From the IMG/VR virus record IMGVR_UViG_3300021088_000001, positions 13,272-77,271 of that record: a DNA stretch of 64,000 bases; one strand, 5' to 3'. The notes below the pieces were generated by a model that saw only the letters and a program-made list of their open reading frames with translations, was not told the origin of the DNA and did no database searches. Each line of letters opens with the position of its first letter. The stretch's first letter is position 1. Shown one piece after another: positions 3,193 to 44,467 of the stretch. A program made the translations under genes and the position numbers. The stretch comes from a virus.

Positions 3193-3737
3193 TTGTTGAT
3201 GAGTTAATTCTCTATGTGAGGCAGGAGGCGTATTATAACTCTATTCCTCACAAATGTAAAATAACTCGTGCGGAGCAAATAGAGCGCCTGAATAATGGAT
3301 TAGAAGAAACAATAGAAAAAAAGAGCGACGACGACTTCGAGGAAGAAATCAATGCTCCAAAAGTTACAATACTAGAGAGACAAGAAATTCCTATGCCAGA
3401 GATCACTTCAGGCGCGGAATATCTTGTCTCTCTTTTACATTCTGCTGGACAGGCTAAGCCTACAGGAATGGGACTTGTTGGACTTGATTGGACAGATATT
3501 AAAGCTTGGGCAGATTGCTGTGATCTATGGGATACAGTTACGCCAAGAGATTTACAAACGGTATTCACATTGAGCAGAGCTTATGCAAATGAATGCACAG
3601 CAGCTACTCAAGAGGGAGCAAAACCTCCTTATTCACCACCAATTGAAAAAGAACAGCTTGAAGAAATGCGCGATGTTGTGAGTGACAGCATTGATGATAT
3701 TTTTGCAGGTATGATTGCAGCACAACCTACTAAATAA
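3174..3737 (+). CDS. Tail assembly chaperone T portion (probable -1 frameshift extension)
   Basis: Frame is -1 relative to G and open from 3174, overlapping the G stop; no RBS at GTG 3216; LDWTDIKAW motif. Confidence 0.65.
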   Translation, partial: RAFHRLVVDELILYVRQEAYYNSIPHKCKITRAEQIERLNNGLEETIEKKSDDDFEEEINAPKVTILERQEIPMPEITSGAEYLVSLLHSAGQAKPTGMGLVGLDWTDIKAWADCCDLWDTVTPRDLQTVFTLSRAYANECTAATQEGAKPPYSPPIEKEQLEEMRDVVSDSIDDIFAGMIAAQPTK

Positions 3738-13022: not shown

Positions 13023-13448
13023 ATGCTTCTTGCCTACATATTGTTGGCAATAGCACTTGCCCTAACTATATGGGATAGGAATTCTCTGCTGCTCACACTT
13101 GCTGTGGGCTGTAGTTATTTCCTCCCTGTGGAGCTTATCACATCTAGGCCGTTGTGGGTAGCGGCTTGTATTGTATCTGAACTCACTGTGCTTTCTATTG
13201 CTTTGTACTTACAGACACAAGCAACTAAAGCTGTCGGATGCATGTGCGGACTTCTAGTCCTGTGCCATTTACTTGGATGGTATTTTAGTGGATTTGACAC
13301 TAGTACTTATGCGAGTATTGTGTATCAAACGATTGAACCATATCTAGAGTATATGGAGATATTGGCATGTATAGTGTTTTCTAAACCAGTGATTGATAAA
13401 ATATTTAAGGGGACAAAATGTCTACTGAAGTTTGGGTTTGGTGTCTAA
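13023..13448 (+). CDS. Multipass membrane protein of unknown function
   Basis: 4-5 hydrophobic segments in 141 aa. Confidence 0.7.
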   Translation: MLLAYILLAIALALTIWDRNSLLLTLAVGCSYFLPVELITSRPLWVAACIVSELTVLSIALYLQTQATKAVGCMCGLLVLCHLLGWYFSGFDTSTYASIVYQTIEPYLEYMEILACIVFSKPVIDKIFKGTKCLLKFGFGV

Positions 13449-36587: not shown

Positions 36588-38365
36588 GCTTTGTTTGGTT
36601 TGAATGTCTCGCTTCCAAATGACATACCTTTCAATCCAAGCCAGTCATCTTTATCATACAAGGTATGAGTAGCATTATCATAGTAGTATTGGCCAACCAT
36701 TCCTGTATTTCCAGACCAGCGACATTTAGTCATCTTCATGTAAGTTGTGTTCTTTTCTAGATCTTCATCGGCCTCTTTATTTCGAGTGAACAGGAGATTA
36801 CATGCTGCACTTTTGAATATGCTAGAACTTCCAAGAAAGTCTTCTTCATGTAAGTCTGCACCAGTGCTTCCTTGCTTACCACCTTGTGGTGTTTTTCTCG
36901 TGTGATTAATATTGATAAATGTCACCCCATGAGATTTCAAGATACCCTTCATCCATCTCTGGAACACTGCCTGCTCTTCATTACTCAATCCGTCCATCAA
37001 ATCTTGAAGAGGGTCAATGATAATCACCTTACATTCGCAAGACACAATCAATTCCATGATAAGAGATTTAATTGATTCTAATCCGCCATCCCTATCTTCA
37101 ATAAGATGCCAACGATCTGTGCCATCGGGCTGCTTCCACAACTCTTCCTCCCTCCTCAACACTTCAGGAGAGTTAAGGAACGAAAGCTTATCTTCAACAG
37201 ACTCAATAAGGTCTATCTTCCTACCGACATGGCGAGACAGTATCTTTGTGCCATATTGCCCACTATCAGATTCTAGTGAGAGTACACCAATTTTATGTGG
37301 ACTATTAAACACCCAGAAATATGCGCATTCATCTGCAATTGTACTCTTTCCTGTCCCCGAAGCACTTCCGAGATTGACAATAACTCCTAGTGGTATTCCT
37401 GCTGCCATAGCTTTCTGTACTTTGTGCATAAATGGTGGCAATGGTATTTTAGGAATTGCGGCTGCTTCACGAATCTTCTGTCCTAAACTACTACTACCCA
37501 CAATACCATCTGGACTGTAGGGTACGGCATCAAAGAAAGCTCGAAGGAATTGCTTCTCTTTACCTTTAGTAAGATACTCATTAGCATCTTTAAGGGTAAG
37601 TTTCATAACAAACATCTTATTCTTCGGCAACACATCTACAAGCTTTTTAACAGCCTCTCTGCCAGCATCGTCATTATCGTAGCACACCACAATACGCTGT
37701 GCCTGATTAAGCCATGCATATTGTAATTGTACTTGTTTAAAACTTCCAGATTCACCGATAGCGCTAGAAACTACTGGAGTGGCATCAAAATCACTTCCCT
37801 TGCCAACACGGTAATTCTCAAGCATCTGGAATGCACTCATTGCATCAATCTCACCAGCACACAACAACACATATTTAGCCTGATGGTCTTTCCATTTCCA
37901 TTGGCCAAATAATTCTGAATTCTTACCAATCTTTCCTACTGAATAGAAATCCTTAACGGGCGTAGACCGTACTTTGAAGCCTGCAGCCTTGTAATCTTGT
38001 GTGTAAGGATAATAGTGCTCAACAACTTCTGCAGTCTCTTCGTTGTATTTAAATCGGCAAGCATAAGCCTTGTATGTCTCGTCAGTAATCCCTCGTTGTC
38101 CTTTTCCTGATGTGCCAGTATACTCCTTGATTGCTTCTATTTCTTCTGGAGTGATAATTTCTTTAGTACTCACTTCGGAGTCCTGATATTCATATTTGTC
38201 AATCCCTTTCTGTTCTTTTTGTTCGTCAGATAACTCTGTATAAAAGCAGGCATGACAATAGCCTCCTAATCCTTCGCCATAATAGTGAAAGTTATTTCCA
38301 GAGGTATCACGTCCATTTTTACGACAACGTTTGCAAGGATTTTTTCCGACTATGTACTTTGTCAT
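36584..38365 (-). CDS. T7 gp4-like DNA primase-helicase
   Basis: Zn finger CxxC..CHAC; GEIDA and YDND Toprim; SGTGKST Walker A; IIDP; HTRK; KCRWSG. Confidence 0.95.
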   Translation of the reverse strand: MTKYIVGKNPCKRCRKNGRDTSGNNFHYYGEGLGGYCHACFYTELSDEQKEQKGIDKYEYQDSEVSTKEIITPEEIEAIKEYTGTSGKGQRGITDETYKAYACRFKYNEETAEVVEHYYPYTQDYKAAGFKVRSTPVKDFYSVGKIGKNSELFGQWKWKDHQAKYVLLCAGEIDAMSAFQMLENYRVGKGSDFDATPVVSSAIGESGSFKQVQLQYAWLNQAQRIVVCYDNDDAGREAVKKLVDVLPKNKMFVMKLTLKDANEYLTKGKEKQFLRAFFDAVPYSPDGIVGSSSLGQKIREAAAIPKIPLPPFMHKVQKAMAAGIPLGVIVNLGSASGTGKSTIADECAYFWVFNSPHKIGVLSLESDSGQYGTKILSRHVGRKIDLIESVEDKLSFLNSPEVLRREEELWKQPDGTDRWHLIEDRDGGLESIKSLIMELIVSCECKVIIIDPLQDLMDGLSNEEQAVFQRWMKGILKSHGVTFININHTRKTPQGGKQGSTGADLHEEDFLGSSSIFKSAACNLLFTRNKEADEDLEKNTTYMKMTKCRWSGNTGMVGQYYYDNATHTLYDKDDWLGLKGMSFGSETFKPNKA

Positions 38366-38379
38366 ACAATATATACCAT

Positions 38380-38589
38380 TCAGTCTCCCCAATTATACTC
38401 AAAACCATAATCCCACTCTTGGCATAAGTAGTCGATAGCCTCATCATCTTCAACGGAAATACCCTCTTCTTTAGTTTCTTCAGTGGGGTAAATTATTCCG
38501 CCCTTACTGACGAGAAAATTTCCAGCTAATTGCGCCCACGCTGAGCATTCGTCCCATCTACTACTTAGATACTCATTTGCTTGTGGCAT
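38380..38589 (-). CDS. Hypothetical protein
   Basis: GGAGG RBS; AIDYLCQEWDY. Confidence 0.6.
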   Translation of the reverse strand: MPQANEYLSSRWDECSAWAQLAGNFLVSKGGIIYPTEETKEEGISVEDDEAIDYLCQEWDYGFEYNWGD

Positions 38590-38606
38590 ATTTCCTCCAA
38601 AATTCG

Positions 38607-38635
38607 ATTATAACTTACCTCGTGGCACTTGTCAA
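38607..38635 (-). promoter_or_regulatory. Consensus promoter for the primase operon
   Basis: TTGACA-17-TATAAT. Confidence 0.8.
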
Positions 38636-38661
38636 TGTCAGAGTGTTAATCCTCAGTATAA

Positions 38662-39639
38662 TCACTCCATTCTGTCGTGGTTCTCTCCATCAATAAGCTT
38701 TCTATATTGAATCCAGCCTTTAAGTGGTCCACTCCACAGTTGCTCATTCCTGTCCATATGGCTAATTCCTTTTTCCCATGTGCTAGGATATGATGGAATA
38801 TTGACACAGCCTGACAACAATTTATGCAATACTCTCTTCTGACATGGATTAGCCTGATGCTCAAATGCACTAGCATGCTTCCTATCAGAGCCAACAAGCT
38901 TATCATACACTTCAATACACTTTGCCAGACTATAATCTTCGTTCCTGTAACTCACTGCAGCACAGCGTGCACAGGATACTTTAATTGCGTCATCTAGACT
39001 GATTGGCACACCATCTCCGAGATGGAATGTCTGTCCTTTATAACCTAATGACGGATTAAAGCTATCTACATATGGCAGATGCCATTCTCCAGCTTTTAGA
39101 AATTGTGGAGTAGAAGTAGCCATAGCTGCTTTCATACATCGTGCTAATTCTTCCAAACTAGGATCTGCAGCATTGTGATTACGCAGCCAAAAGAAGTTAG
39201 CCCACTCTGTGCCGCTAATCACTGTCTTCATCATCTGCCAAGGCTCTGTGAGGCGGTTAAAAATTTGCTTACTGTAGCCAGCTTCATAGAATGACCTAGA
39301 CACCTTTATAGCCTCCAGTTTAGCCTCATGCCATGCAACTACTGGCGTGCTTCCATATGTGTCGTTATACACATATGCATCATGATCTCCACCATCCCGC
39401 ATTCCCGGATTAGCTGCTCCAAATCGTACAGGCATTCCTGTAAGCTGCTTCTGCATCTTCTCGAATGGAATAGCTCTACTGGATGCAGAGTTCTTTGGTA
39501 ACATCCGATGCGTATTTAGCTCAGATAGTATTATCCGAGGATACTCAATTTCCATTGTAGTAAAACGAATTCTTGCCTCTGAAATGCTATCACAGAGTAT
39601 TGTGGCTTTGATGCCAACTCTACCTTCGATTGTGATCAA
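38662..39639 (-). CDS. thyX: Flavin-dependent thymidylate synthase-like protein
   Basis: ELNTHR..NSASSRAIP, NRLTEP, RCAAVSY, HASAFEHQA. Confidence 0.85.
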   Translation of the reverse strand: MITIEGRVGIKATILCDSISEARIRFTTMEIEYPRIILSELNTHRMLPKNSASSRAIPFEKMQKQLTGMPVRFGAANPGMRDGGDHDAYVYNDTYGSTPVVAWHEAKLEAIKVSRSFYEAGYSKQIFNRLTEPWQMMKTVISGTEWANFFWLRNHNAADPSLEELARCMKAAMATSTPQFLKAGEWHLPYVDSFNPSLGYKGQTFHLGDGVPISLDDAIKVSCARCAAVSYRNEDYSLAKCIEVYDKLVGSDRKHASAFEHQANPCQKRVLHKLLSGCVNIPSYPSTWEKGISHMDRNEQLWSGPLKGWIQYRKLIDGENHDRME

Positions 39640-39858
39640 TTACTTATCCTTTCCGGTAATCTTCTTAAGCTCATTAAGAGCCTTAATCATATAATCGATA
39701 TCTTCAATAAGAATTGATATCTCCTCATTGCCATCAATAACACTAAACCAATCAGATGACGCCCGGTCATAATGTAGAATCTCCTCTGAAGTTCCAAACT
39801 GAATTTCAGTAATATCCTCATCAGTTGGAAGCATAGCTCTTATATTAATATATGCCAT
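39640..39858 (-). CDS. Hypothetical protein
   Basis: GGAG RBS; ORF in operon. Confidence 0.55.
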   Translation of the reverse strand: MAYINIRAMLPTDEDITEIQFGTSEEILHYDRASSDWFSVIDGNEEISILIEDIDYMIKALNELKKITGKDK

Positions 39859-40020
39859 TATTTCTCCAATTTCTCATAAAGTTTATACAACGAAACACTC
39901 TCAGAATAATATCCATTACTCTTTCCAAGCCACCAGATATCTACATAACCTTTAATCGTAGCAAGCTTATAGAATGTCCATGTTGTTTTAATGCTACTCC
40001 TGATGATCTTCTGAATATCT
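39858..40020 (-). pseudogene. Probable C-terminal remnant of a common phage protein
   Basis: [21 protein letters not shown] motif without a credible start or RBS. Confidence 0.45.
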
Positions 40021-40950
40021 CTAGTAAAATACTTCTTTACCTCTCTGATAAGGCTTAATCCTCCCATCCAAAAGAGCATTAGAAAACCTCTGAAAATAAT
40101 CATCTAAATACAATTGCCTAACAGCATCATAATTTTCATAAGCAAATTCTCTCCACCAACCTGATGAGATGCTCGTACAGCATTTGAAAAGTGCATAGTC
40201 AAATGCTTCTCTGGGCGTCATACTTCCTGTATAGGGTACTAAACTACGCTCAATTGCCAATACCATCGACTCTTCCACTACACTGAGCAATTTAATATTT
40301 TCATCGGAGGCTTCAAATTTATTTTTGCTACATTGCACTTCAGCTTCATCTACTTTAAAATACATGTATGCTGGCTTATCTAAATGTTTTATTGCCACGT
40401 GGATAGAGTCATGGTCATAGATGTATGGCACATTATCTGTGAAGAATTCATCCTTAGATTTATTCAATTTAGGATGTGAGTAGTTATAAGTATCTTTCAT
40501 ACGTTGATTGTAGAACTCATAAGCACTCTCTGGTATGAATGCTCCATGTTGTCTCATCAACTTAATATCTTGTCGTGTCTTCTCGAAGTGGGGAGAATTC
40601 TTAAGATAGCGGTGAGACATCTTGAGCATATAAAGACAGTTCAGACTTGGAATTAATGCATCAGTACCATTTAGCACAACTTGCTCAAAACCTTCCTCCA
40701 TATGCACAAACTCTTTAAGTCTCTCAGCCATACTGTCAGGCCAAGCCACTTCAGCTTCAATAATACGTCTATCTGTTTTTACATAGACTGTCTTACCACT
40801 ATTTATAGGATATTGTGCTAACACTTTCTCACCAAGATTATTGATGAATTCTTGGATTTCATCATACGAGCCAACGAGGTCTAGATCAGCAGGTTTTCGT
40901 GGCAAATCAATATGATAAGCTAATGCACAGCTTCCGATTAGTACTAGCAC
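40021..40950 (-). CDS. Nucleotidyltransferase-like protein
   Basis: LIGS..DLD motif at N-terminus; AAGGAG RBS; KMSH and HDSIH motifs. Confidence 0.65.
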
Positions 40951-40963
40951 AATTTCTCCTTAA

Positions 40964-41200
40964 TTAACAACTTTGATTACTTGGATGCCAACCTTTATCG
41001 CCCCACGGAGAATCATCGGTTGGACAATAGAAGCCACCAACACTGTAACCCTCTTCATATGAGTTTCCTTCTCCACCCCATGGAAGCTCAAACACTATAT
41101 TAAATTCGTTAGAGAGTTTGATACACTCGTCAAATAATTCACGAAGTTGTGCACATTTTGACGACAGCAAAGCTGCTGCAGCTTCTTGTGTATGGTCCAT
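40964..41200 (-). CDS. Small protein ending WHPSNQSC
   Basis: ATG 1 nt after the upstream stop; 78 aa. Confidence 0.7.
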   Translation of the reverse strand: MDHTQEAAAALLSSKCAQLRELFDECIKLSNEFNIVFELPWGGEGNSYEEGYSVGGFYCPTDDSPWGDKGWHPSNQSC

Positions 41201-41201
41201 A

Positions 41202-41474
41202 TTAACAATCATACGAAGAGCTATTCCACTCAGGATGCAGCTCTTCAACAGCCTCAAAATCATACTTCAACTCTCGCAAGTCTATAGTAATTCCAGACAG
41301 TGTAACAAGTTCTTTGATCTCTGTCAATAGAAGTTTGATAGACTGAATCTTTGCAGCGCAGTCAATTGAAGCTTGCTTCTGGATGATGAGTTTCTGACGC
41401 GCAAACTCTTTCAGATCAATTGTTGGCAGCTCTACCAATTCTGCAGGGTTGGCTTTCTTTTTGATTTCATTCAT
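41202..41474 (-). CDS. Small protein ending WNSSSYDC
   Basis: AAGGAG RBS; ATGA overlap with the hydrolase stop. Confidence 0.75.
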   Translation of the reverse strand: MNEIKKKANPAELVELPTIDLKEFARQKLIIQKQASIDCAAKIQSIKLLLTEIKELVTLSGITIDLRELKYDFEAVEELHPEWNSSSYDC

Positions 41475-41959
41475 TTTACTATCTCCTTAGCTAAATTTAA
41501 CAAACGTTTATCTGCTCTAGTAAGAACTTCAAGCAGCTTTATTTTTTCTTCCAAATATATTACTGCAAATTTCGGGTCGTGTCTACAAATACTTGATGTA
41601 TTACTTATCAAATCTGCACATTTAATTGTTTGGATATGTGCTGGAGCTTCTGATAATCTCGCACAAGCTGCAGCCTTCCTTTGTGCCCGATTACCTACTT
41701 CCATATCCGATAGCCACCAAACACCTTTAGCAACAGTGAAACCGAAATGTGCCAATAGGACATCATATTGCACACCTTGATCCTCCATGCAGTCATGTAG
41801 CCACGCTGTCGCTATACATTGTTCACACTCAGACACACTGGCTGTGATAGCAGCCACTTCTGCTAGATGTGTAATGTAAGGCTCTCCTGTGTATTTTCTA
41901 ACTTGGTTTTTATGTTTATCTCGTGCAAACATCATTGCATTATATACTATATCACTCAT
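41471..41959 (-). CDS. RelA/SpoT-type HD small alarmone hydrolase (Mesh1/SAH-like)
   Basis: HKNQVRKYTGEPYITH..LHDCMED..IKCADLISN. Confidence 0.88.
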   Translation of the reverse strand: MSDIVYNAMMFARDKHKNQVRKYTGEPYITHLAEVAAITASVSECEQCIATAWLHDCMEDQGVQYDVLLAHFGFTVAKGVWWLSDMEVGNRAQRKAAACARLSEAPAHIQTIKCADLISNTSSICRHDPKFAVIYLEEKIKLLEVLTRADKRLLNLAKEIVK

Positions 41960-42248
41960 TTGTCTACCCGCCAACCAATATACCATCCACCACCCTTATC
42001 ATGATTTAAACACATACTAAATGTGTTATTAGCTTCAGCTTCCTGAGCATTCACACAAGCATCCATCCAATATCCATTTACGAATTTTGCATAATATACA
42101 ATAGTGTTAAATCCTTGTATCTGGTACACGCTATTGTACAGTGGCTTGATTGCAAATGAAGTCCAATTGAAGCCTGCGGGACCGTTTAGGGCACGTTCTG
42201 CTTCAGAGGGGTTGGTCCAATCTGTGATCTTCAACATTTCGCTTCCTC

Positions 42249-42701
42249 CTAGTAATAGAAAAGATGACGCCCAACTCTCTTGCAAAATTTCAAATGCCAC
42301 TTAGGATGAACATATACAGCATGAAAGCTGCTACATCCCTCCACAACAGGCTCCATATTAATCAACATTTCTAACTCTGTCAACTGTTCAATTGTAACAC
42401 GAAGCTTTGTGTGTTTAGTGAACCCGCTAAATTGAAAGGGTTCCTTTAGCACTTGGCATGCTGTCATATTTCTTTGTCTCATGCGTGTTAGAATTACGTC
42501 GATTATTGCTCTTTTGCCCTTCACAGGTTCTCCTCCTGCTTCAGATTTCACAGTCCAAGCAATGCATATTGCATCTTCGGACATCGGTAGCCCACCCTCC
42601 ACAATTCCTTGTGGAAATGTAATAATTTCTGGCAGGCTTTCTGAAGCTAGGCAAATTGATGCTAGTGACAATAGGAAGCCTATCAGAAGGTTTTTAATCA
42701 T
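42249..42701 (-). CDS. SleB-like cell wall hydrolase with signal peptide
   Basis: SEAGGE..QFS..FHA..PKW..VGRHLFY. Confidence 0.8.
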   Translation of the reverse strand: MIKNLLIGFLLSLASICLASESLPEIITFPQGIVEGGLPMSEDAICIAWTVKSEAGGEPVKGKRAIIDVILTRMRQRNMTACQVLKEPFQFSGFTKHTKLRVTIEQLTELEMLINMEPVVEGCSSFHAVYVHPKWHLKFCKRVGRHLFYY

Positions 42702-43975
42702 GCAGCATCTTCTCGGTCTAGACTTTCGCAAATTCCTTCCATCACTTTGAAGAAATAACTCTTACTCTTCAGAAAATATGGAGTGTGCTTGCCAGTATCA
42801 ATCCGCAGGATAACTCCCTCACTAGGATGACTACCATCAATCACATCATCTCCAAGCGTCTCAGAACGCTCTGTGAGGCCATCAACAAGCTTCTGCAAGC
42901 TCTCTGTATCACCGTCATAAACAATAGCAGGATGCACCTCTACAGGCCCTAGAATCTGCCTATCAGCGCACCATTGATCAAGCTGCTTCTGTGTGAAGTC
43001 TATATTAACACCATTCACATCTGCCTGAGTGATACGGTATACATGGAAGCGGTATTCATGCTCTTTGCAGCCATATTTGTAGATAATACTCTCTCCATAT
43101 TTCTTCTGGAAAGCTTTATCTTTTGTAGCCTTAGCAGAGTGAACAGCCATAATTGGCTTACCATTAGCATAGCCTGCAATCTCACCATAGACTGTCATAC
43201 CATTTACCATATGTGGTTTCAGCATCTCGGCTACATCAAAGCGAAATTGCTCACTTCCGTGAAATCCATCTTTCTTCTCTGTTAGCACTGTGTTGCGTGT
43301 ACCAACAACATGTGTGTACTCTGTGTTAGGAAATACATTTGCAAACTTATTCACAACCTGCTTCCACTTAGGTAGTTCTATATTTGTCAGTGTCAATCCT
43401 GAGCGATGACTTGTACCATGAACTTTAGCATGGAAGTGAATCAAAGCACCTTTAGGAATCAATCCTACATTGTGCTTGAATTGATCACTATCTACATGCT
43501 TAGCAAACAATGGTGTCACAGACACTTTAGCTTGCTTAGGACGATTTTGTCGCGCAATACTATCTCGTGTTGCTTGGCTAATGTATTTGCAGCAGATTGG
43601 AAACTCATTCACTGTGTCAAATGTCTCTCCAAGAGTTCGATAACCATCACGTCCTGTATAGAACAAGCTAGACAATGGTGCAAAATACCCTTGGCTCTTC
43701 ACCTTCAAGAATGGCTGCACTCGTACACGCCGATTCTCGTCAAAGAATCCAGATTTTGTTGTATCAGAATTCAATTCACTCCGACGAAAAAGATTATTCT
43801 GTTTGCAATACTCTTCAGAGAGTTGTGTATCTGCGGGGAAGAACACACCAATGTATCCTACTCCTGTGTCTTTGCTAACGATAACATTCTCACCAAGCAC
43901 AACAGCTACGTGAATCTTGTCTGCTCCCGGAATAGGAGTGACAGAAGTGATTGCTGCAATAATTGCTTTACTCAT
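42698..43975 (-). CDS. RNA ligase (Rnl2/DRB0094-like) with N-terminal OB-like domain
   Basis: IPGADKI; KVHGT motif I; YGEI; EGVILR; LKSKS. Confidence 0.85.
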   Translation of the reverse strand: MSKAIIAAITSVTPIPGADKIHVAVVLGENVIVSKDTGVGYIGVFFPADTQLSEEYCKQNNLFRRSELNSDTTKSGFFDENRRVRVQPFLKVKSQGYFAPLSSLFYTGRDGYRTLGETFDTVNEFPICCKYISQATRDSIARQNRPKQAKVSVTPLFAKHVDSDQFKHNVGLIPKGALIHFHAKVHGTSHRSGLTLTNIELPKWKQVVNKFANVFPNTEYTHVVGTRNTVLTEKKDGFHGSEQFRFDVAEMLKPHMVNGMTVYGEIAGYANGKPIMAVHSAKATKDKAFQKKYGESIIYKYGCKEHEYRFHVYRITQADVNGVNIDFTQKQLDQWCADRQILGPVEVHPAIVYDGDTESLQKLVDGLTERSETLGDDVIDGSHPSEGVILRIDTGKHTPYFLKSKSYFFKVMEGICESLDREDAA

Positions 43976-43977
43976 AG

Positions 43978-44467
43978 TTAATCCCTATACCCGGCCTCAA
44001 GCCGACGAATTTTATGTTTCAGATTATAAATTGTGGCGATATCATACTCGTTGCTATTACGTGATACACGAAAAGAAATACCATTGAATGCGCAATCTAG
44101 AAATTCAACGCGCAGTATGCCACAGTGATTCTTAGCACGCTCAACTATATCATGGATAGTTCCACCAGCAGTCTCAGTTATCTCCATAACTTACCTTTCC
44201 GGTTTCAAAGAGAATTTGGCATACTCTTATATGTCTTGAAATGCGCTCACTAGAGTCTTCATCTTGATGGTAAATATTAGTAGCTCGCGTCTGTGTGTTC
44301 CAATTATACTCCCATACCATTGTTTCTGAAAATCTACCACCATCTATGCAAGACGATTCTCTATCAATCGTACTAACAAAGAAACAACGGTCATTGTGCC
44401 ATACATAACTTTTAATTAAGTCCTTGTCTGGCATGTAGTATTCACTCATCAAATTGTCCCTCAACAA
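43978..44467 (-). CDS. Two small hypothetical ORFs (43978-44187, 44174-about 44449)
   Basis: Overlapping ORFs in operon. Confidence 0.5.

Follow-up and report, generated by a model that had tools for sequence, protein, structure and literature searches.

A predicted phage nucleotidyltransferase encoded beside arrays of small acidic proteins with a shared Trp/Ser/Cys tail

The window analyzed here is a stretch of 64,000 nucleotides (nt) that covers positions 13,272 to 77,271 of IMG/VR virus record IMGVR_UViG_3300021088_000001, a 77-kb phage genome. A DNA run from a soil metagenome, probably the source, is the sole sequencing run listed for this contig, and no RNA run is listed. Our subject is a gene in this window for a predicted nucleotidyltransferase (NTase) and the two genes for small tailed proteins that precede it. 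Together with a fourth gene further upstream, all are located on the minus strand, in an extended series of genes with one orientation that serve replication and nucleotide metabolism, among them genes for a primase-helicase, ThyX, and an RNA-ligase-like protein. Read along that strand, the four genes encode an HD hydrolase of the RelA/SpoT (small alarmone hydrolase) type (162 amino acids, or aa; 41471..41959), small protein A (90 aa, isoelectric point or pI 4.97; 41202..41474), small protein B (78 aa, pI 4.25; 40964..41200), and the predicted NTase (309 aa; 40021..40950), which begins with a GTG codon and is called the enzyme below.

A preliminary description of this stretch claimed that the four genes are tightly coupled and that the small proteins end in identically spaced octapeptides. 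Direct reading of the sequence agrees on both counts. The stop codon of the HD gene overlaps the start codon of small protein A in an ATGA at 41471-41474, a single nucleotide separates the small A stop codon (41202-41204) from the small B ATG at 41200, and the GTG of the enzyme at 40950 lies 13 nt past the small B stop, after a spacer (40951..40963) that carries an AAGGAG ribosome-binding site. Small protein A has the C terminus EWNSSSYDC, in which the octapeptide WNSSSYDC is encoded by 41205..41228, and small protein B has the C terminus GWHPSNQSC, with WHPSNQSC encoded by 40967..40990. A scan of 38300-44300 for promoter and terminator consensus sequences produced matches at chance level and gave no operon boundaries.

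The enzyme consists of an N-terminal polymerase beta (pol-beta) domain that matches Pfam family DUF7277 (residues 3-79, E 3.9e-12) and a helical domain that matches DUF7275 (residues 106-282, E 1.8e-65). It also belongs to phrog_2141 in the PHROG collection (E 5.7e-98), and all three families are annotated as having unknown function. The GS..DxD signature that had been noticed earlier is present as G6-S7...D22-x-D24 (codons 6-24, 40879..40935) and is accompanied by E65. These five residues are invariant in 35 homologs of 47-57% identity, as are many polar residues of the C-terminal domain. When the homologs were pooled with those of a second, shorter clade that is described below, the pattern G[ST]...D.[DE] was kept in 152 of 155 enzyme open reading frames (ORFs). 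Judged by sequence conservation, selection for catalysis is established for this protein.

An AlphaFold (AF2) model of the enzyme has a predicted local distance difference test (pLDDT) score of 90.9 and adopts an alpha/beta NTase fold. Its top matches in the PDB are all NTases, namely MenT1, MenT3/TglT, MenT4, ANT(2''), JHP933, and LnuA, with CCA-adding enzymes ranking lower. The MenT-type matches span Z 6.8-7.3, and the match to MenT1 (Z 7.3, 151 residues, root mean square deviation 4.2, template modeling score 0.33/0.48) is at a level that is common for unrelated models. A Pfam scan to E 1 returned DUF7275 and DUF7277 and no match to DUF1814/AbiEii or to the RlaP family (PF10127), and a sequence profile search of the PDB with the enzyme gave no match. 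Because the fold scores are modest and neither DUF1814 nor any PDB chain is matched by sequence, the protein is classified as a pol-beta NTase of MenT/AbiEii-like shape and is not assigned to the MenT family. The earlier proposal that the 309-aa protein is a pol-beta NTase is supported by its motif and its predicted fold.

The two small proteins had been described as paralogs, a claim that holds at the level of profiles and fails at the level of pairwise comparison. Direct BLASTP of one against the other gave no alignment. Jackhmmer searches among the ORFs of related loci that were started from either protein converged on the same set of ~166-169 ORFs in 65-67 loci. Likewise, a hidden Markov model (HMM) of the family found just two matches in the 77-kb genome, small protein B (E 2.1e-21) and small protein A (E 2.7e-8). 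Common to both are an ~30-residue helix, one short strand, an acidic/aromatic linker, and the tail. They thereby show the traits of what we call the Cys-tailed family: an N-terminal amphipathic helix, short strands, an acidic linker, and a tail with Trp, a Ser three residues after it (W+3), and a terminal Cys. In the AF2 model of small protein B (pLDDT 81.6), a helix at residues 5-33 is followed by three short strands, the last of which holds the Gly-Trp of the tail. W71, S74, and C78 of this protein are invariant in a 37-member alignment, and close relatives of small protein A that end in W-N-S-S-S-Y-x-C occur at the equivalent position in five loci (L006, L020, L021, L026, and L038).

Members of this family, which are termed partners here, are folded proteins of 65-220 aa with a median pI of 4.27. 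Their bodies diverge in sequence and length and the short motif stays constant. At 50% identity, the family resolves into 1,246 clusters or more (E ≤0.001), and nearly all of the listed matches extend to the last residue. Small protein B weakly matches the C-terminal part of phrog_899 (E 4e-4), with which the partner family overlaps. No Pfam family was found for either small protein, no HEPN or carrier-protein family was detected by Pfam in the partners, and tblastn of small protein B against phage genomes gave no match. Fold searches with the small-protein model revealed no relative in the PDB (best Foldseek E 3.6, best Z 3.6), and MenA1 was absent from the matches returned. Cef of phage T4 was considered as a possible relative of the partners and proved to be unrelated. 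In the RefSeq record of phage HX01 (L084:2691-2963 and 3221-3472), a Cys-tailed protein is named “tail completion protein” and an 83-aa neighbor “major capsid protein”; given size and family, both names look like annotation errors.

The association between the enzyme and the tails was evaluated in 80 viral loci from IMG/VR that were retrieved through the enzyme. A tail motif was scored wherever a same-strand ORF ended in W-x(1-4)-S-x(0-4)-C. Such an ORF was present in 72 of the 80 loci, and 182 tail-motif ORFs were found on the strand of the enzyme versus 6 on the opposite strand. Three of the eight loci lacking the motif have no room upstream of the enzyme. Among the other five, three have family members with 1-4 residues beyond the Cys, one has a family member without a tail, and in one no member was detected. 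Homologs of the enzyme thus usually do have motif-bearing neighbors (72 of 80 loci by motif, plus three in which the HMM detects variant tails), so that the lack of neighbors that the preliminary description had named as refuting its proposal was not seen. The HMM places 164 members upstream of the enzyme and 8 downstream, each locus carries 1-6 copies (at least two in 53 of 67 loci), and the median gap between the last copy and the start of the enzyme is 31 nt. All-against-all clustering of the ORFs in the 80 loci identified the partner family as the sole conserved neighbor. An apparent conserved minus-strand neighbor in 53 loci was discarded, being an antisense ORF within the enzyme gene itself.

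The association was also approached from the opposite direction, by choosing loci that carry a DNA pattern for the tail regardless of the enzyme. This search collected 123 loci, of which 47 have a family member; a narrower pattern yielded 8 loci only. The enzyme was present in 17 of the 19 loci that have a family member and at least 3 kb of downstream sequence, versus 0 of the 76 loci without a family member, and the contigs of the two exceptions carry the enzyme elsewhere. Similarly, in five complete phage genomes (150-344 kb), all family members are situated within ~2.5 kb upstream of the enzyme. Phages RsoM2USA, ESCO13, KARL-1, HX01, IME08, phiR1-RT, and Ac42 each have 2-4 small tail-bearing ORFs in this position. 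The association between enzyme and tail is far beyond chance, and the conserved unit is a two-part phage module made up of the enzyme and one to six small acidic partners. Relatives of RB69, JS98, and phiR1-RT have the module between e/nudE and e.6. The whole record of phage T4 contains neither the enzyme nor the Cys-tailed family, and this absence may be the reason that no one has worked on the module.

These surveys leave the HD hydrolase outside of the module. Its identification as an alarmone-hydrolase type of protein was well founded, because the protein matches the RelA/SpoT-type domain HD_4 (PF13328) with E 4.3e-12 and 46.5 bits, versus a gathering cut-off of 27.2, and has an H-D dyad within AWLHDCMED; it also has a partial match to TIGR00691 and a match to phrog_990. 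The preliminary description had further grouped the hydrolase, both small proteins, and the enzyme into one four-gene functional system, and translational coupling of all four genes in the window is compatible with this idea. Small alarmone hydrolases are reported to detoxify tRNA CCA ends that have been pyrophosphorylated by toxic alarmone synthetases, and a hydrolase acting on such ends would suit a role of the module at RNA ends. The toxSAS side of this CCA-end pyrophosphorylation is treated in a preprint (bioRxiv 10.1101/2024.07.05.602228). However, just 7 of the 80 loci have an HD homolog within 5 kb of the enzyme, its position differs among them, and none of the 39 loci of the shorter enzyme clade has one. 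Given this scarcity, the four-gene operon is a trait of this phage lineage and not of the system, and the hydrolase is a lineage-specific neighbor. A single four-gene system is accordingly very improbable.

Coupling in the window also continues further upstream, into unrelated genes. The HD ATG at 41959 overlaps the stop codon of a preceding 114-aa ORF, so the coupled block begins upstream of the HD gene. This translationally coupled ORF (41956-42300, minus strand) belongs to no family. It overlaps by ~50 nt the end of a gene for a 160-aa cell-wall hydrolase (Hydrolase_2; 42249-42731, minus strand), and for this reason its real start may be further downstream. The Hydrolase_2 gene adjoins the module in 14 of 80 loci, all from close relatives of this phage.

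Clues to the function of the module come from the residues of the tail. In 229 non-redundant Trp-containing tails that were aligned on the Trp, Ser occupies W+3 in 223 (97%) and W+4 in 159, and Gly occupies W-1 in 111. Cys takes position W+7 in 158 tails, W+5 in 46, and W+8 in 6, which amounts to 210 of 229 (92%); it is missing or non-terminal in ~10% of the partner members detected by HMM. Small protein B has Asn at W+4 and retains the Trp-x-x-Ser core. Because the Trp and the W+3 Ser are the best conserved positions of the tail (97%), ahead of the Cys, emphasis moves from the Cys to the Ser, and the alignment points to Trp-x-x-Ser as the invariant core of the tail.

Considering these data, we propose that the enzyme recognizes a short exposed Gly-Trp-x-x-Ser motif of its partners, which here would form part of an eight-residue C-terminal tail ending in Cys. 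The enzyme would then move a nucleoside monophosphate (NMP), or a short run of NMPs, from a nucleoside triphosphate onto the hydroxyl of the near-invariant Ser. MenT1, MenT3, MenT4, ANT(2''), and LnuA are pol-beta enzymes that place an NMP on a hydroxyl. Nucleotidylation would mature different small effector proteins by way of one common handle, and its biological role may lie in conflicts with the host over RNA or tRNA ends. Recognition of the tail, the Ser as acceptor, and the biological role are all points that we infer, whereas the genes, motifs, intact catalytic residues, fold class, two-way genomic linkage, and Ser-bearing partners of a second enzyme clade are observed. We assign a probability of roughly 0.45 to the claim that the enzyme nucleotidylates the tail Ser of the partner arrays.

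A second clade of enzymes has partners of another kind. These shorter proteins (250-275 aa; phrog_6944) retain GS...DxD and the DUF7275 domain, and are found in Streptomyces phage Limpid, Gordonia phage Yvonnetastic, and Vibrio phage nt-1, as well as in a mobile element of Nocardia jiangxiensis and in contigs from Plantactinospora and Mycetocola. No Cys-tailed gene is present in any of the 39 short-clade loci from IMG/VR. Instead, the enzyme is flanked, mostly downstream, by 1-4 tandem copies of genes from another small family (phrog_18295/8206/13591), as for example at L222:3330-4771, L224:3986-5588, L225:3705-4762, L219:4791-7105, and in L226-L264. Genes of this type occur in 38 of the 39 loci, the exception ending 350 nt past the enzyme, and in all three of the actinobacterial genome loci examined. 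Among 100 non-redundant members of this second family, Ser is the sole invariant residue. Position -4 is Gly in 93 members, and aromatic residues stand at -2 in 75 and at +1 in 91. This motif lies within the protein and no Cys comes after it, yet the Gly at -4 and the aromatic residue close by recall the Gly-Trp-x-x-Ser seen in Cys-tailed proteins. For a modified or reactive residue, one would expect such a pattern, in which a single Ser stays invariant in an otherwise divergent family.

The second family also bears on the pairing of Ser and Cys in the tails. Conceivably, the Ser could be nucleotidylated and eliminated and the Cys thiol could add back, as in a ribosomally synthesized and post-translationally modified peptide, to produce a lanthionine-type C-terminal ring (Ser-Cys i+4 or i+2). 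The Ser is indeed N-terminal to the Cys at fixed spacings (Cys at W+7 and W+5 being predominant), such spacings are known from the rings of lanthipeptides, and several precursor-like genes lie beside one enzyme. However, partners of the second clade keep the Ser and have no Cys, which makes a ring of this type unlikely, and ~8% of Cys-family tails also lack the Cys. Moreover, ORF clustering in the 80 loci detected no conserved lyase, cyclase, protease, or exporter nearby, and folded proteins of 65-220 aa do not resemble leader-core peptides. We therefore give ring formation very little credence.

Several findings weigh against nucleotidylation of the Ser as well. The fold matches of the enzyme are modest, with a Z score of about 7, which is commonly reached. 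The Cys is kept in 92% of tails, and modification of the Ser does not explain this; the Cys may bind metal, form a disulfide, or serve a second step. Furthermore, comparison of the two partner families by hhalign gave a probability of <1% and E 0.075, with only the G-W-x-x-S stretch aligned, so that homology is not demonstrable and the Gly/aromatic/Ser likeness may reflect convergence or coincidence. Lastly, the closest structural relatives of the enzyme, the MenT toxins, target tRNA 3' ends rather than proteins and have small inhibitory partners.

This last point suggests a toxin-antitoxin-like arrangement, in which the enzyme would act on RNA (e.g., on tRNA 3' ends, as MenT does) and the acidic partners would inhibit it, with the tail plugging the active site and the Ser mimicking a 3'-OH. 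MenT1, MenT3, and MenT4 are the best fold matches of the enzyme, and the small partner gene is upstream and coupled in translation. MenA1-MenT1 has the same layout, and there the 68-aa helical MenA1 blocks the active site of MenT1 (PMC10435456). The acidity of the partners is also what would be expected of a nucleic-acid mimic. Nevertheless, an enzyme with as many as six diverged partners, or four in the second clade, is unusual for antitoxins, of which MenAT systems have one per toxin as a rule; loci with 1-6 partners likewise depart from the single partner per toxin that characterizes type II and type VII toxin-antitoxin systems. Inhibition by MenA1 is due to its helix, and its last 17 residues are disordered (PMC10435456), whereas the conserved part of the partners described here is the tail. 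The enzyme, as stated above, has no DUF1814/AbiEii match at E up to 1. Arrays of diverged bodies built around one constant short motif are easier to reconcile with many substrates of one enzyme than with a single inhibitor. We consider the inhibitor arrangement unlikely, and continue to favor nucleotidylation of the Ser.

Weak links connect the enzyme with RNA ligases and tRNA clusters. In a 630-aa protein designated P0241, which is encoded on one 10.5-kb Logan contig, DUF7277 and DUF7275 are fused to a PHA02142 oligonucleotide/oligosaccharide-binding (OB) fold and an RNA ligase domain. A ligase of the P0241 type lies no more than 5 kb from the enzyme in 4 of 80 first-clade loci and immediately upstream of it in 5 of 39 second-clade loci. 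The window has a ligase-like gene of its own (42698-43975, minus strand), 1.7 kb upstream of the enzyme. Its 425-aa product matches the PHA02142 OB-fold domain at its N terminus (PF21189, 27.9 bits) and has no ligase-domain match in Pfam; it is probably an RNA ligase of the P0241 type. In addition, tRNA genes are present within 4-5 kb in 18 of 60 loci of the first clade and 16 of 36 loci of the second, always on the same strand. The ligase and tRNA counts alike have no baseline and serve as leads only.

From these associations it could be supposed that the enzyme works with an RNA ligase to restore or modify the ends of RNA or tRNA, and that the small proteins are tail-docking adaptors or specificity factors. 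The fusion of the enzyme with OB and RNA ligase domains in P0241, the ligases close to the enzyme in both clades and in the window, the nearby same-strand tRNA genes, and the presence of CCA-adding enzymes among the fold matches all accord with such a role. Yet ~90% of loci have no ligase, the fusion is represented by one protein from one contig and might be an artifact of gene calling, and the tRNA proximity counts stand without a baseline. Acidic proteins also bind RNA poorly, and the enzyme has no match to RlaP (PF10127), which is the NTase family known to associate with ligases. A repair function of this kind appears improbable.

Certain arrangements of tRNA and other RNA genes near the module are recorded here as observations in their own right. 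Several short-clade loci (L260:1820-7265; L228:1468-3611; L254:1687-3615; L236:473-8144) present, in this order, a tRNA cluster, an RNA ligase, the enzyme, a partner array, and more tRNAs. One of these contigs, L228 from a phage, has a transfer-messenger RNA gene (2035-2361) with the tag ANDFALAA. In one viral contig, ARAGORN reports a tRNA with anticodon CTA (amber-reading, labeled Pyl) at L027:2819-2892, ~2 kb upstream of the module.

Nucleotidylation of the tail Ser might be one instance of a more general scheme. In this broader proposal, which we hold tentatively and regard as somewhat doubtful, a widespread and so far undescribed post-translational system of phages would use one NTase to put nucleotides on the invariant Ser of a short Gly-aromatic-x-x-Ser handle displayed by small-protein arrays. 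Two unrelated partner families and two enzyme clades would be included. The protein-linked nucleotides would act in RNA or tRNA-end conflicts, perhaps as primers, decoys, or ligatable ends for the occasionally fused RNA ligase.

Systems already known resemble the module in part. MenAT1 and other MenT/AbiEii (DUF1814) systems have a bi-lobed pol-beta NTase with a helical C-terminal lobe, which the predicted fold of the enzyme matches at modest scores, and, like the module, a small helical partner encoded just upstream. They differ in being chromosomal rather than phage-borne, and DUF1814 is not matched by the sequence of the enzyme. Moreover, the 1-6 diverged partners in the phage loci conserve a C-terminal Trp/Ser/Cys tail and not a helix, and the small-protein model has no PDB match. 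Another group of precedents involves the modification of proteins. In HepT-MntA (HEPN-MNT, type VII), a minimal NTase nucleotidylates a Tyr of the HEPN RNase that is encoded adjacent to it. GlnE and CitX/MdcG are protein-nucleotidylating pol-beta enzymes or prosthetic-group transferases, and CitX/MdcG act on a carrier-protein Ser. By analogy with MntA-HepT, GlnE, and CitX/MdcG, the proposed reaction would transfer a nucleotide group to a side-chain hydroxyl of an adjacent small partner. However, the acceptors in HepT-MntA and CitX/MdcG are a Tyr of a HEPN RNase or an acyl-carrier Ser, and neither of these families was detected here. A third comparison is with RlaP, a phage NTase located near RNA ligases (PMC7824862). 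For the enzyme, a ligase link is occasional, with one fusion and an adjacent ligase in 9 of 119 loci. In contrast to RlaP, it has no PF10127 match, and linkage to a ligase is the exception whereas linkage to small proteins is the rule.

The module has a broad distribution. Homologs of the enzyme are present in 733 of 50,697 deposited phage genomes, including those of RB69-, JS98-, and RB49-like relatives of the T-even phages, rV5-like phages, actinophages, phages of Acinetobacter, Aeromonas, and Vibrio, and jumbo phages of Pseudomonas syringae and Ralstonia. Among 185,579 prokaryotic species genomes the enzyme was encountered 12 times, mostly in phage-like contigs of metagenome-assembled genomes, and again with tailed neighbors. 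Giant viruses (Sylvanvirus and Satyrvirus; BFVD A0A3G5AJ90 and A0A3G5AE53) encode DUF7275 proteins of 508-571 aa that are structurally similar to the enzyme. The database families that cover the enzymes and partners (DUF7275/DUF7277, phrog_2141, phrog_6944, phrog_899, phrog_18295, phrog_8206, and phrog_13591) are all of unknown function. A full-text search of the literature found no paper on DUF7275, DUF7277, PF23940, PF23942, the PHROG identifiers, or RB69 ORF134c. Since the pairing of enzyme and tail is repeated in hundreds of phages of very different kinds, it looks like a two-part system that has not been described.

Neither the enzyme nor its partner has a name, a structure, or a paper, and the linkage between them is among the tightest for phage accessory genes. 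RB69-like, JS98-like, and rV5-like phages of E. coli that carry the enzyme are easily handled, and mutating a few residues (the Ser, Trp, and Cys of the tail and the DxD of the enzyme) would provide a sharp and inexpensive test of the module. If the enzyme modifies the tails, this would represent a new kind of phage protein modification, and the eight-residue tail would be a portable tag. Should the partners inhibit the enzyme, the module would be a phage-borne relative of tRNA-modifying toxins. Modification and inhibition alike would extend what is known of the conflict between phages and their hosts.

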